From Nitrospinota bacterium (GTDB taxonomy: Bacteria; UBA8248), in NCBI GenBank assembly GCA_046581755.1, contig JAYGFR010000341.1:1-17625 (forward strand): a stretch of DNA of 17,625 nt. Reading direction: 5' to 3'. Numbering within the stretch: the stretch's first letter is position 1; each line of letters opens with the position of its first letter. This document shows, one piece after another, positions 6,763 to 17,625 of this stretch. A program made the position numbers and the translations under genes. The notes beneath the pieces were generated by a model, which saw nothing but the letters and a program-made list of their open reading frames with translations, was not told the origin of the DNA and ran no database searches.

Positions 6763-8972
<2,210 letters not shown>

Positions 8973-9031: not shown

Positions 9032-9142
9032 GTTCCCTCCCCCCCCTGCGCACCTCCCCGCATTTCCGGTGCGTCCCATTTGGCCCCTCCGGCGTATCTT
9101 CCCCATGCGCGCGCGGATTCACCGCGCGGAAAGGGAGGCAAA

Positions 9143-9785
9143 ATGGAACTGGAAAAGAGGAAAACGCGGGGGATGATGACGGGGCCCGGGGGGCGCAAGC
9201 ACCCGCCGAGCAAAATCGAGCGGGCCGGCGCCGGGGAGGCGGTGGGCGAGGTGCTCATGGGCGGCACCACATTGGAGGAGGCTTGCGGAAAGTTTCGGGA
9301 GATTGCGGGTGAACCTTTGAGTATCAATTCGATGAGCCGCTACCGGAAGCGCCTCTTCGAGCACACCGCGAAGATGGAGAAGCTCGACATCCTCGTGGAC
9401 CGGCTGCTGGACCGGGCGTCCGAGGCGCCCTCGAGCGACCCGTCGGCGATGGTGCGCGAGATGATGCTGGCGCTGGTGATCGAGGCGGCGGATACGATCA
9501 CCCCCGAGGCGATGGCGGCGATGCCGCCCGGGGAGCTCTCCCTCCTGGTCGCCCGGCTCGAGCGCTCCCGGTCCGCGCGCGACATGGTGCGCCTAGGCTA
9601 CATTCAGGCGGCGATGGCGGCCAAGCCGCGGGATACTGAGGGAGATGGCCGAGGAGATCGCCCACAACCCCATGCAGTTGAAGGATATCAGGCAGTCCAA
9701 CAAGGAGGTGGACGCACTGAATGAGGCCGAGGAGGAGGAGCTAAAAGCGGCCGCAAAGAGAGGCGGTCAGTCCCCGGGCCTGTAG
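9143..9785 (+). CDS. Mu-like phage Gp27/DUF3486-like protein, with probable +1 frameshift near 9626
   Basis: RBS GGGAGG, then ATG at 9143. The pattern SKIE...TLEE...LSINSMSRY..helical region..LSLLVARLERS resembles the Gp27 family. In frame it stops at 9724 after an unnatural tail; the +1 frame gives helical RGILREMAEEIAHNPMQLKDI... ending at TAG 9785. Confidence 0.5.
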
Positions 9786-10261
9786 GCCACCCGCGCGCCG
9801 GGAGTGAACCCGTTGCGTTCGAACCAGCCCCGGTTCACTTCGAGGGCGTACCGGACGGGCTCTTTCGATGGATAGGTGGGCGCATCGCCGCCGGCCCCGG
9901 GCGGGTCCATATGGCGAATTTCGTCGATGCGCCAGTTCGAGGCAATGTAGGCGATCGAAAGAGGGATGCGAATGTTCTTCATCCAGAAGGCCCGTGGGCC
10001 GCTCCTTGGATAGATGAACAGCATGCCCTCGCCCTCGGGCAGATGGCCCCGGAACATGAGGCCGCGCCTCCGGGCGGCGGAACGATCGGCGACCTCGACC
10101 TGGAGGGTGACGCTCCGCCCGCCCTGGGAGATCGTGACGGCGCCGCTCTTGAAGAGGATTGGGGGCGGTCCGGCTGGCGCAGGTACTGCGGTGGCCGGTG
10201 CGCCGGTGGCCGGTCCCGCGAAAACGAGGGCGGCCGCCAGGCCGATAATCAGCTTCCGCAT
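9767..10261 (-). CDS. DUF192-domain exported protein
   Basis: Signal peptide; signature VEVAD...RRRGLMFR..LPEGEGMLF...FWMKN..IPLSIAYI...YALEVNRGWF. Confidence 0.92.
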   Translation of the reverse strand: MRKLIIGLAAALVFAGPATGAPATAVPAPAGPPPILFKSGAVTISQGGRSVTLQVEVADRSAARRRGLMFRGHLPEGEGMLFIYPRSGPRAFWMKNIRIPLSIAYIASNWRIDEIRHMDPPGAGGDAPTYPSKEPVRYALEVNRGWFERNGFTPGARVAYRPGD

Positions 10262-10378
10262 GAACGCGTCTCCGAATTGCCGCGGCGCGCGTGCTGCCCG
10301 CGCATTTCATCCGGCCCCCACAGGAGGAATGATGGCGAATCCTGTCCATATCATAACCCGCAAAGGAGAATGCGCCTC

Positions 10379-10942
10379 ATGGAAAAACCCATCCCGTTCA
10401 GGAGAGCGAGCACGACGCCGGGCGAGCACCTCATCGACAAGCCCGAGCTTCCCCGGCAAGGGTTCGCCATGCACCTCGTGGCCGGCACCGAAACGCTGCC
10501 GGACGAGTATCAGCTCAAGGTCGGACGGTTCATGGACCACGAGATCTACTCGGACGAGCCCAGGCATATCGGCGGGACGGACAAATATCCCCCGCCCATG
10601 AGCTACATCGCGATGGGGGTGGGCTTCTGACTGCTTACGCAACTGGCGCGGTACGCGGCCATGATGAAGTTGAAAATCAAAAAGGCGAGCTGCCGGGTGG
10701 AGTTCGACTACGTGCTCCGGGGCTCAGTCCTGAAGGCCACGGTGAACACGACATGGGAGGGGGTGAAAACCCACATCGAGGTGGAATCGATTGAGCCCTC
10801 CGAAAAAATCGCCGCCCTCGTCAGAATCGCCAAGGGAGGCTGTTTCGCGGAGAACATGATTACCCAGGCGGTGCCGCTGACGAGCGAGGTGAAGCTGAAC
10901 GGCGAGGCGCTCGAAATCAAGGGGATCACGCCGGAGGGATAG
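10379..10942 (+). CDS. OsmC/Ohr-family peroxiredoxin-like protein, probable selenoprotein (Sec84 at TGA 10628-10630)
   Basis: ORF-track entries 9911-10630 and 10661-10942 are in the same frame, separated only by TGA plus 10 sense codons. Joined, they read SDEPRHIGGTDKYPPPMSYIAMGVGF-U-LLTQLARYA...AKGGCFAE, the OsmC DEP..GG...P.P motif with U at the first catalytic Cys and the second Cys at codon 10841. RBS AAGGAG precedes ATG 10379; 187 aa. Confidence 0.88.
10644..10661 (+). promoter_or_regulatory. Putative bacterial SECIS element
   Basis: Hairpin UGGC-GCG-[GUA]-CGC-(G)-GCCA. The apical loop begins with GU at +21/+22 from the UGA, within the spacing expected for SelB-binding SECIS elements. 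Confidence 0.65.
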
Positions 10943-11027
10943 GGAGATTTTCTCGATAAAAGTGGTTTATGATAGGATAATAGATCAAACGACTTTCCCG
11001 TCTCGAACAACCAAGGAGGCCCTCCCC

Positions 11028-12184
11028 ATGAAAAACCTTCTTTGCACCTTAATCGGAGCGGCGGCGTTCCTCGCGATATTCCCCGCCTCGGCGGGCGCCG
11101 AAATCCTGGCGATGGTGAACTACGAGACTCGCAAGGACCAGGCGTTTCGGAGAGAGGGAATCGCCATCATCGACGTAGACCCGAAATCCGGGAACTACGG
11201 CAAAATTCTCATGGACATCCCCCTTCCGCACGACCTGGCCAACCACCACATCTTCTACAACCATGACGCCAGCAAGGCTTACATCACCGCCCTCAGCACG
11301 GGGCGTCTCCTCGTCATGGATCTCAAGCGGGTCCCCTACCGGCTGAAAACCATCCGGGTTCCCGGCTGCGCCGTGGGCGAGGACATCGTGTTCTCGGACG
11401 ACAACAAGACCTGGTGCACAACCTGCATGGGCTCGAACAAAATCATCGGCGGAGACGCCGTGGCCGACAAGCCCGTCAAGACGCTCGCCACGACGGGCAA
11501 GGCCTTCATCAAATACCCCCACGGTATCGCCGTCCACGGCGGCATCGACCGCATGCTTGTGACATCCACGGTCCGCGCCTCGGACCTCGGCAATGCGGGC
11601 GGGACGGTGACGGAGATTGAAGCTAGCAGCGGCAAGGTGCTCGCCACCCACAAGGTGGCGGGCAACCCCGCCAAGGGAAAAGCCCCGGTCGAAATCCTTT
11701 TCCTTCCGCGCTCAAACCCGCCCAGGGCCTACATCACCAACATGTTTGGCGGGACGCTCTTGCTAGCCACCTGGAGCCCTGGGAAGAAGATTTTTTTGGT
11801 GAAGCAGGTGTTCGACCTCTCGCCCCACAAGGCTGGCATTCCGCTGGAGATGTACTTCAACGAGAAAGGAGACAGGCTCTACCTCACCACGGCCAACCCG
11901 GGAGCGTTTCACATCATCGACATCAAAAACCCGGAAAAACCCAGGATGCTGAAAACCATCCCGGCCGCGGGCGGGGCGCATCATGCGGCCTTCGACAAGG
12001 GGGGCAAGTACGCCTTCGTCCAGAACAACCTGCTGGCTTTCAAGGGAATGAACGACGGGTCCATCACGGTGATCGACATGAAAAAGGAAAGCGCATCGGG
12101 AGCATCGACACGTTCAAGAACCGGGGGCTTCTCCCGAACCTGATCGTCCTGCTGCCGGAGTGGAATTTAGAAGCGGGCCACTAG
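11028..12184 (+). CDS. Secreted YncE-type beta-propeller with SBP56/methanethiol-oxidase-like N-terminal motif; one base missing near 12081-12090
   Basis: RBS AAGGAGG, ATG at 11028, signal peptide ending ASAGA. Motifs IAIIDVDPKSGNYGKI...P..LANHHIFYN, YPHGI and GGAHH. Restoring one A yields GKRIGSIDTFKNRGLLPNLIVLLPEWNLEAGH* (TAG 12182-12184) instead of the tail ending at 12143. Confidence 0.75.
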
Positions 12185-12217
12185 CGGCTCCGGCCGGAAG
12201 TGGTTGAGCCTGAACCC

Positions 12218-13336
12218 CTAGGCCGCGGCGCGTTCGGCCTCGATGAGGGCCTTGATCCGGGGCAGGAGGTCGCTCGCCACGCGGCGGGCCTCCTCCATAT
12301 GGGGGTAGCCCGAGAGGATGAATTCGTCGATGCCGAGCCGCCAGTAGCCCAGAAGCTCATTAGCGATTTGATCCGGCGAGCCAACCAGGGCGGTGCCGCA
12401 GTTGACCCGGACGGTGGAGATACCGTTCCAGAGGTGGGCCCCCAAGCGGTGATTCTCGGCTTTTTGAATCTGCCCGCGCTGGCCCACCATCGCCGTTCCG
12501 GCGAAGAGCGCCTGGCGCTGGGTCTGAACGGTTTTCTCGGCGCGGGAGAGAAGCTCCTCGGAAGCCGCCCAGGCTTCCTCTTCGGTGTCGCGCATGACGA
12601 TGTGGGAGCGGAGCCCGAAGGCGGAGGGCCGCCCCGCTTCGGCGAACTGGGCGTTGGCGTTGTCGATGAATTTGGCGATTCCCTCCTGGGGGGCGATCCA
12701 GGCCAGGTAGACGTCCGACTGCCGGCCGGCGAGGCGAAGGGCGGCCGGCGAGGCGCCGCCAAGATAGAACTTGGGCCCCTCCCCCACTGGGCCCGGCGAG
12801 CAGTGGGCGCCGTTCAGGCGGACGTGCTCTCCCTCGAAGATGACCGGTTTCGGGGACTTCCATAGCTCGCGCAGGGCGGCGATAAACTCCTCGGCCCGCT
12901 CGTAGCGCGTGTCGTGGTCGATGTTCTCGCCCATCTTTTCGAATTCGCCCTGGATGCCGCCGGGAACGATGTTGATGTCGATCCGGCCGCCGCTGATCTG
13001 GCTGAGGGAGGCGGCCATCTGGGCGAAGAGGCCGGGCGATATGAAGCCGGGACGCACGGCGATCAGGAAGCGGATCCGGCTGCTGACGGCGGCAAGCGCC
13101 GTCACCATCGTCCACGTTTCGGCCAGGGGCTCTTCGCTCTCGAACAGGCCGTTGGCGAAACGCGTTGGAATCAGCATCGAGTAGTAGCCGCACTTCTCGG
13201 CGGCATCGACGATCTTCCGCAGGTTCTCGAATGTGGGTGGACGCTCGGCCTTGAGCGTTCCGATGTGCTCTCCGTCACCGTCGATGGGAATGAACCAGTC
13301 GAACCTGGGTTCGGGCCTTTCGGATACGGGTGTCAT
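12218..13336 (-). CDS. LLM-class flavin-dependent monooxygenase (SsuD/alkanesulfonate monooxygenase-like)
   Basis: WFIP..GDG, MLIPT, RFLIAVRPG..SP, SGGRIDINIV.G, HDTRYERAEEF, YLGGAS, LW.G...VR..CGTALVGSP, EFILSGYPHMEEA. Confidence 0.9.
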   Translation of the reverse strand: MTPVSERPEPRFDWFIPIDGDGEHIGTLKAERPPTFENLRKIVDAAEKCGYYSMLIPTRFANGLFESEEPLAETWTMVTALAAVSSRIRFLIAVRPGFISPGLFAQMAASLSQISGGRIDINIVPGGIQGEFEKMGENIDHDTRYERAEEFIAALRELWKSPKPVIFEGEHVRLNGAHCSPGPVGEGPKFYLGGASPAALRLAGRQSDVYLAWIAPQEGIAKFIDNANAQFAEAGRPSAFGLRSHIVMRDTEEEAWAASEELLSRAEKTVQTQRQALFAGTAMVGQRGQIQKAENHRLGAHLWNGISTVRVNCGTALVGSPDQIANELLGYWRLGIDEFILSGYPHMEEARRVASDLLPRIKALIEAERAAA

Positions 13337-15663: not shown

Positions 15664-15850
15664 TAACCACCCCTCCCCAAAAAACGGGTTATTTAACTAG
15701 ACCGTCCCGGATTCCTAAAAATCAAAACAGGGGAATTTCAAACAGGCACTGGAAAAAAACAGCCGGAACCCCTTGGAGGAAACGCTTTGAAATGATAAAT
15801 CAGCCTCATTCCCGAAATTTAGTTCTTTCTAAAAAACGGAGGAGTCCCAG

Positions 15851-16241
15851 ATGAAGGAATCCGAAAAATTTATGCCCATCAATACGGATGAAATCGAATG
15901 GCAGGACGGAGAGAAAAATCCTGGGACTCCCGCCCGGGCTTAAGGCGAAAATCATCGCCGAGGCCTACGATGAGGTTTCGGAGCGGGTCGATAAGTTCGT
16001 TCAGTTCCCCCCCGGGTACACCGAGCCGAGGCATGAGCACGACTACTACCACAGCACCCTGGTCCTCGAAGGGGAGATGCACGTAGCCGGGAAAGTGCTC
16101 AAGCGGGGTGACTACGTTTATGGCGGCGGCGCGGGAAACTGGCACGGTCCATACCACTACCCTGTCGGCTGCATGGTGTATTCGGCAGGCCGTGCGAAAA
16201 AAATGAGCCAGATTCACCGCCAGGACGGGGAAAATAAATAG
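15851..16241 (+). CDS. Cupin-domain protein (ChrR/DUF4437-like), with one extra base in A5 at 15914-15918
   Basis: RBS GGAGGAG, then ATG at 15851 gives MKESEKFMPINTDEIEWQDGEK. Removing one A joins it to ILGLPPGLKAK...PGYTEPRHEHDYYHSTLVLEG...GDYVY...WHGPY (cupin motifs 1 and 2). Confidence 0.78.
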
Positions 16242-17108: not shown

Positions 17109-17625
17109 CTATGCAGCCTCTTCCACTTTGAGTTTTCCGTCAATCCGCTCGTCATTGCGTTCAAGGGCAGCGCTGAGGCGGGCCATGCCCTGGTAGCCCC
17201 GCACCCGGCGGAATCCCTTTCCGGCTTCCATCAGGCCCGCCGCCATCCAGCGCAGGATCATCCCTCCTCCCCTCCAGCGCTTGACCCGGCGGCTCACCCC
17301 CCGGACCGTGCCTAGGAGGTTCTCGATGACGTTCGTGCTCGAGAGGGTGCGCTCCAAAGATGCCGGGAGTCCCATCCCCATGACGGTGAGCGTCTCATCG
17401 AGCCCCTCTCTGAGAGAAGCCGCAGCTCCCGGATAGGCGGCTTCGAGCTTGCGCGCGAGGCCAGGCCCAGCAGGTGCTTGCGGGCATCGGCGTCGATGCC
17501 CAGCGCCACCAGTACCACATGCTCCGCGAAGTGAAGCCCAACGAGCATGAGGACCTTGAGGTCGACCCCCTCGAGCGGTTTCGAGAGAAATTCCTCAAGC
17601 TGAGCCCGGGTGGCGGCGACGAGGC
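17063..17625 (-). mobile_element. IS256-family insertion sequence remnant (3' end; runs off the window)
   Basis: Transposase fragments, followed 3' by ...AATTTCAACACAGAACGGGACATCCCC, which resembles IS256-type terminal inverted repeats. The other end is outside the window, so IR pairing and target-site duplication cannot be seen. Confidence 0.75.
17109..17625 (-). pseudogene. IS256 (Mutator-type) transposase pseudogene with internal deletion and frameshift
   Basis: One frame reads LVAATRAQLEEFLSKPLEGVDLKVLMLVGLHFAEHVVLVALGIDADARKHLLGL. At ~17460 it switches frame to LARKLEAAYPGAAASLREGLDETLTV...LSSTNVIEN...RRVKRWR...WMAAGL.EA.KGFRRVRGY. Confidence 0.88.

Follow-up and report, generated by a model that had tools for sequence, protein, structure and literature searches.

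An intact OsmC-related gene with an in-frame UGA, predicted to encode selenocysteine, in a Nitrospinota-labelled genome

OsmC-like proteins with selenocysteine (Sec) in a UxxT motif were predicted, together with SECIS elements, from Sargasso Sea sequences by Zhang, Fomenko & Gladyshev in 2005 (PMC1088965); they were reported again in an Olavius symbiont study of 2007 and in the GOS analysis of 2008, and reviews published in 2022 and 2026 include them in their lists. In the papers of 2005 and 2022 the Sec-containing family is placed under COG1765/YhfA. Full-text searches of the literature brought up bioinformatic listings and no biochemical study of an OsmC-like protein with Sec. For the Ohr/OsmC proteins, a review (PMC8945050) describes a peroxidatic Cys that enters an intramolecular disulfide, which is reduced by lipoylated proteins, and a catalytic Glu that precedes the peroxidatic Cys; in the same review's account, YhfA-type proteins have both Cys residues but not the Arg and Glu adjacent to the peroxidatic Cys, and their biochemistry is uncharacterised. 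Metagenome-assembled genomes (MAGs) labelled Nitrospinota stand among the ten bacteria richest in selenoprotein genes in table 2 of a 2026 database paper (PMC13326102), and one of the Nitrospinota MAGs in that table has the same isolate name as the records of L068 and L091, two loci of the present analysis.

Here we examine a gene at positions 10379-10942 of a contig of 17,625 nucleotides (hereafter the window: the whole stretch of DNA that was analysed) from a Nitrospinota-labelled MAG. A preliminary description, made from the sequence, had presented it as a hidden selenoprotein gene of the OsmC/Ohr family. 'Hidden' does not hold, as NCBIfam NF041052, 'OsmC-related (seleno)protein', names exactly this family, which has been in print since 2005. 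With the family as described in PMC1088965 and modelled in NF041052 the window gene shares the Pfam domain, the U-x-x-T motif (here U-L-L-T) and a SECIS element with G in a small apical loop; measured against that description it differs in nothing essential, and is a further copy, from a Nitrospinota-labelled MAG. The features of the gene are as follows.

10379..10942, + strand: OsmC-related gene predicted to encode a selenoprotein, complete; 187 codons followed by a TAG stop
10628..10630, + strand: in-frame TGA, predicted Sec codon 84, in the motif U-L-L-T
10644..10661, + strand: SECIS-like hairpin; stem of 10644-10650 with 10654-10661, 7 bp with one bulged G; loop G-U-A at 10651-10653
10841..10843, + strand: TGT codon of Cys155 in KGGCFAEN, predicted resolving partner of Sec84

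The reading frame and its family

Read with translation table 11, the region is split into two ORFs, 9911..10630 and 10661..10942 (the latter of 93 aa). Translated with TGA as U, the frame 10379-10942 is a single run of 187 codons interrupted by one in-frame TGA, in the context GVGF-U-LLTQLARYA, which confirms that the two fragments are joined in frame through a single TGA. The frame begins with an ATG at 10379, with AAAGGAGA upstream at 10362-10369, and this start is supported by homologues whose N-termini (MEKPI..., MEEKPL...) agree with it. Conservation of the protein is strong on both the N-terminal and the C-terminal side of the TGA; U84-L-L-T87 and Cys155 are invariant in alignments A1 and A4, and the partner Cys noted earlier within GGCFAE is indeed intact. 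Standard annotation was expected to break up such genes, and public gene calls do deliver them as pieces of ~83 aa and ~90-100 aa.

The read-through protein matches NF041052 with 163.5 bits (cut-off 95), residues 37-175 aligning with positions 6-144 of the 144-position model, and also matches the Pfam OsmC domain (PF02566; 1.1e-13, 51.9 bits against 27.5). An AlphaFold2 model computed from a 25-sequence alignment has a mean pLDDT of 92.6. Compared with the PDB by Foldseek, this model gave 64 matches at E<=0.001 with OsmC/Ohr entries on top, the best being 2onf, 6mjn, 1lql, 1vla, 1n2f and 1qwi, all of the OsmC/Ohr family. The best solved relative by sequence, at 1.9e-14 in a profile search of PDB sequences, is 3cje, a structural-genomics entry titled 'OsmC-like protein', a title without a function. 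It resembles the window protein in having Cys at the columns of U84 and Cys155, the motif C-x-x-T-Q and no Glu before the first Cys, and differs in that it has Cys rather than Sec, is shorter (167 aa) and is without the conserved N-terminal stretch PGERxIDKPELP.

In five alignments (3cje, 2opl, 1vla, 9wo1 and 2onf) a Cys is aligned to the column of U84, and Cys155 is aligned to the second Cys of 3cje and 2onf. The proposal that the TGA falls at the peroxidatic Cys holds only in that the column aligns with a Cys of OsmC-family structures. With the lipoyl-dependent organic hydroperoxide reductases of the Ohr/OsmC type (1n2f, 1qwi, 1vla) the window protein shares the fold and the two Cys positions, on the long helix and the C-terminal helix, whereas identity in the structural alignments is 12-20%, Sec replaces the first Cys and the Glu is absent. 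In 1vla, 2opl and 2onf this Glu lies 9-10 residues N-terminal to the Cys, where the window protein has Met74 and Ser75. Among 113 Cys-containing relatives, 97 have L or M at position -10 from the Cys and one has E. The Ohr equivalog model NF052637 scored 13.1 bits against a cut-off of 240. Since the Ohr model is not matched at its cut-off and the Glu before the active Cys is absent, the window protein is neither an Ohr nor an OsmC proper.

Conservation of the TGA, the downstream hairpin and the Sec machinery

The preliminary description had anticipated Cys/TGA pairs at this column with conservation on both sides, and such pairs were found. Within the genome that carries the window, all six NF041052 matches above the cut-off contain exactly one TGA, each at the same column and within GF-U-LLTQ(L/V)(A/S)RY. 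A scan of related genomes, one per species, yielded 80 loci, all with TGA at that column (78 assigned by motif pattern and two by inspection). When metagenomes were scanned with two Cys-form proteins as seeds, 76 loci came back, of which 71 have TGA at the column and the other five are cut off or diverge before it; none of the 76 has a Cys codon there. Across the phylum, the family is present in 48 of 51 genomes, at 2-11 copies each, and every match among 150 listed of 177 has one TGA.

Database proteins present the other side of the pair. Among 213 relatives, 113 have Cys at both columns; a further 76 correspond to just one half of the protein, N- or C-terminal, as results when gene callers split a Sec form. 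Two Cys homologues, P0003 and P0004, share 56% and 54% identity with the window protein in alignment A1 and have the motifs GFCLLTQ and SFCLVTQ. The TGA was also recovered independently: contigs from two runs of different studies, X4 (covering the whole stretch) and X7 (covering 10300-10803), leave 10628-10630 unchanged, and differ from the window at 4-6 other positions. A contig from an RNA library (X17) covers just 10376-10631, may represent DNA carry-over and is too short for a claim of transcription.

A GU-loop hairpin 3' of the TGA had been proposed and is present at 10644-10661, its loop reading GUA and its stem starting 13 nt after the A of the UGA. Its folding energy as a single sequence is no better than that of shuffled sequences (z -0.09 and -0.11), so the case for it rests on comparison. 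Among 87 distinct 105-nt segments, the synonymous sites of the core GCG-CGG-UAC-GCG are G in 87/87, G in 87/87, C in 87/87 and G in 85/87, and the Arg codon in the hairpin is always CGG, never AGR or another CGN. We also measured codon entropy in 145 distinct full-length genes, at all 55 columns in which a single amino acid, one with synonymous codons, occurs in 90% or more of the genes. Arg91 (CGG in 145/145), Tyr92 (TAC in 145/145) and Ala93 (GCG in 138/145) have entropies of 0, 0 and 0.35 bits; at the other 52 columns entropy is 0.5-2.3 bits and synonymous codons are used freely, as at Arg17 (CGC 81, CGG 23, CGT 19, AGA 9) and Tyr76 (TAC 78, TAT 62). This codon-level test plainly points to selection on the hairpin at the RNA level. 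Cys forms keep R-Y too, so conservation of A-R-Y-A could in part be due to the protein.

Covariation in the stem adds to this comparative support. Of the outer stem pairs, 20-30 is C-G in 85 segments and A-U in two; pair 19-31 is G-C in 53, G-U in 14, U-A in two and unpaired in 18; and pair 18-32 is U-A in 41, G-C in 16, C-G in two and unpaired in 28. Compensatory changes, on both sides of the stem, occur in three of the six stem pairs. Over 72 distinct rows the stem is paired in 92.1% of cells, a value that none of 500 shuffles reaches, and controls in which the pairing was slid along the alignment give 10-72%. A scan of 10300-11050 against Rfam at E<=10 gave a chance snoRNA match and no SECIS match; the database seems to lack a model of this SECIS.

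The genome (4.22 Mb in 400 contigs) was searched for the Sec machinery, and all four genes that had been named for this check are present. The tRNA-Sec gene (selC) scores 73.8 bits and is called tRNA-SeC with anticodon TCA by ARAGORN; selA scores 498 bits; a 640-aa frame with a SelB wing domain lies on the selA contig, ~3 kb downstream of that gene; and selD scores 335 bits (contig C268, 4596-5561, - strand). The selD frame itself contains one in-frame TGA, and appears from this to encode a Sec-type selenophosphate synthetase.

Paralogues and genomic neighbourhood

In a FastTree tree with midpoint root, four of the five intact copies in the genome are nearer by patristic distance to a gene of another genome (0.13-0.25 substitutions/site) than to one another (0.8-2.6). 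The exception is the window copy, whose nearest tree neighbour is at 0.82 because its 80%-identical orthologue at L025 was absent from the tree set. On these distances, the copies within the genome are old paralogues. The Cys forms P0003 and P0004 adjoin a Sec form in the same tree. The sixth copy, on contig C381 (L022), is matched by NF041052 as two segments, 642-953 and 926-1069, that lie in separate frames, and looks like a gene with a frameshift in its N-terminal half, through either decay to a pseudogene or an assembly error.

Multi-domain and tandem arrangements also occur in the family. P0002, a database protein whose source name is that of a Nitrospinaceae MAG, is a 180-aa ORF in which the C-terminal half of one OsmC-like Sec protein runs on into the N-terminal half of another; it is free of stops between two Sec codons and ends at GVGF, which implies a natural two-domain fusion with two selenocysteines. 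Separate tandem copies of OsmC-like Sec genes are found at L033 and L181. P0099, P0106, P0112 and ~30 other relatives have lengths of ~380-416 aa and two profile matches each, that is, a double OsmC domain like that of PDB 9wo1 (400 aa).

By synteny and identity the closest relative of the locus is L025, from a MAG labelled Nitrospinota, in which ThiC is 93% and the OsmC-like gene 80% identical. The frame of the L025 orthologue starts at a Met equivalent to Met31 of the window protein and encodes 167 aa, with the TGA and the hairpin kept. At 1254-3010 of L025, thiC and the OsmC-like gene are separated by ~1.7 kb of other DNA, and the DUF192 gene is reduced to a 44-aa remnant. When the 14 window proteins were compared by tblastn with all fetched loci, no conserved operon partner was found beyond the syntenic L025. 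In the window, a divergent DUF192 gene lies on one side of the OsmC-related gene and a gene for a putatively secreted beta-propeller protein starts 85 nt downstream of it. The other features of the neighbourhood are these.

7013-7102, + strand: TPP riboswitch (69.7 bits; gathering score 54.3), inside the listed ThiC ORF 6909-8972
11028-12143, + strand: gene for the beta-propeller protein, its N-terminus like a signal peptide by eye
12218-13336, - strand: gene for an SsuD/SfnG-like flavin monooxygenase (290 bits, below its cut-off)

The beta-propeller protein resembles methanethiol oxidase/SBP56 weakly and over part of its length (38 bits against 650; Pfam SBP56 22.8 against 34). Judged by such likenesses, the stretch 11028-13336 may form an organosulfur context, one conserved in the closest relative L025 only. 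As the TPP riboswitch lies inside the ORF 6909-8972, the true start of thiC must lie 3' of the aptamer; at residue 130 of that ORF the Pfam ThiC-associated domain begins. Between thiC and the DUF192 gene, ORF 9080-9724 (+ strand) resembles phage Mu Gp27 at a score below the threshold (26.2 bits against 28), and no counterpart of it was found in L025. Two further frames of the window with one TGA each, 15792-16241 (+ strand) and 17109-17624 (- strand), were considered as selenoprotein candidates and judged implausible on inspection.

Decoding, chemistry and meaning for the family

Taken together, 10379-10942 is very probably an intact gene of the NF041052 family in which UGA 84 is read as Sec by means of the conserved hairpin, giving a 187-residue protein whose selenol/thiol pair likely serves to reduce peroxides or some other oxidised substrate. 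The selenoprotein reading itself is well supported by the comparisons above. By analogy with E. coli-type decoding, SelB carrying Sec-tRNA(Sec) would bind the G-U-containing apical loop at 10651-10653 while the ribosome stands on the UGA at 10628-10630. By analogy with Ohr/OsmC, the substrate would oxidise Sec84 to a selenenic acid, Cys155 would resolve the oxidised Sec84 to a selenenylsulfide, and a reductant would recycle the Sec84/Cys155 pair; the protein would probably act as a homodimer, like the solved OsmC-family structures. Given a Sec protein, we hold thiol/selenol peroxidase-like action, on this analogy, to be somewhat better than an even prospect.

Two readings would deny that Sec is inserted here. 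The TGA might have arisen by nonsense mutation or through an error of sequencing or assembly, with the locus a pseudogene or two fragments, as the table 11 split of the frame and the apparent N-terminal frameshift of the C381 copy could suggest; against this stand the TGA at the same column in every readable relative (the six copies of the genome, 80 genome loci, 71 metagenome loci and 150 listed phylum matches), the strong conservation of the protein on both sides of it and its retention in independent contigs, and we regard an accident of this kind as highly improbable. No more credence can be given to a genome-wide reassignment of TGA to Trp or Gly (codes 4 or 25) in place of local recoding to Sec, even with one database homologue, P0016, that has W at the Sec column. 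TGA is the ordinary stop of 4 of the 14 window ORFs and no internal in-frame TGA was found in the other 13; the residue at this column in homologues is Cys rather than Trp or Gly; and the genome has a complete Sec machinery. Moreover, among 152 full-length family genes (loci L025-L180), 51 end in a second TGA that is a true stop, so that a single mRNA has UGA as Sec and, ~100 codons later, UGA as stop.

What the Sec84/Cys155 pair does is the more evenly contested matter. A genuine selenoprotein that is not a peroxidase, in which the pair acts as a disulfide/selenenylsulfide oxidoreductase on a protein or a small molecule, or carries sulfur or selenium species, in the manner of the YhfA/COG1765 branch, is a serious contender that we consider to have roughly one chance in three. 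The published classification of the family under COG1765/YhfA and the review's description of YhfA-type proteins both lean this way; so do the Met/Ser at the position of the Glu and the 13 bits obtained with the Ohr model against 240. The genomes of the phylum hold 2-11 diverged copies each, and old, diverged paralogues such as those of this genome point to diversified substrates rather than to one housekeeping peroxidase. Yet in fold and in the placement of both Cys the family matches proven hydroperoxide reductases, and the neighbourhood offers no conserved gene that would point to another pathway, synteny being confined to L025. Our preference stays, with modest confidence, with a predicted peroxidase-like reduction by Sec84 and Cys155.

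A wider conjecture, which we put forward as unlikely but conceivable, is that the NF041052 clade is a selenium-preferring redox module, distinct from the classical Ohr/OsmC peroxidases, that has diversified into old paralogues with different substrates, gene and SECIS travelling together. In its favour are the 2-11 copies in 48 of 51 phylum genomes and the presence of Sec in every readable close relative. The SECIS core GCG-CGG-UAC-GCG is common to lineages labelled Nitrospinota, Tectomicrobia, Betaproteobacteria and Acidimicrobiia, and a core frozen across these lineages would mean that gene and SECIS have moved as one unit.

The gene is already known in kind, a further copy of a catalogued and NCBI-curated family that has been predicted since 2005, and it raises no new question. 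Its value for annotation is practical: the two table 11 fragments are to be merged into one selenoprotein of 187 aa, and the other copies in the genome are to be treated likewise. Public protein sets abound in 83-aa and ~90-100-aa pieces that are halves of genes of this type. For the biology of the family, the window gene is one more instance of a biochemically uncharacterised group, in a lineage that table 2 of PMC13326102 lists among the most selenoprotein-rich bacteria.
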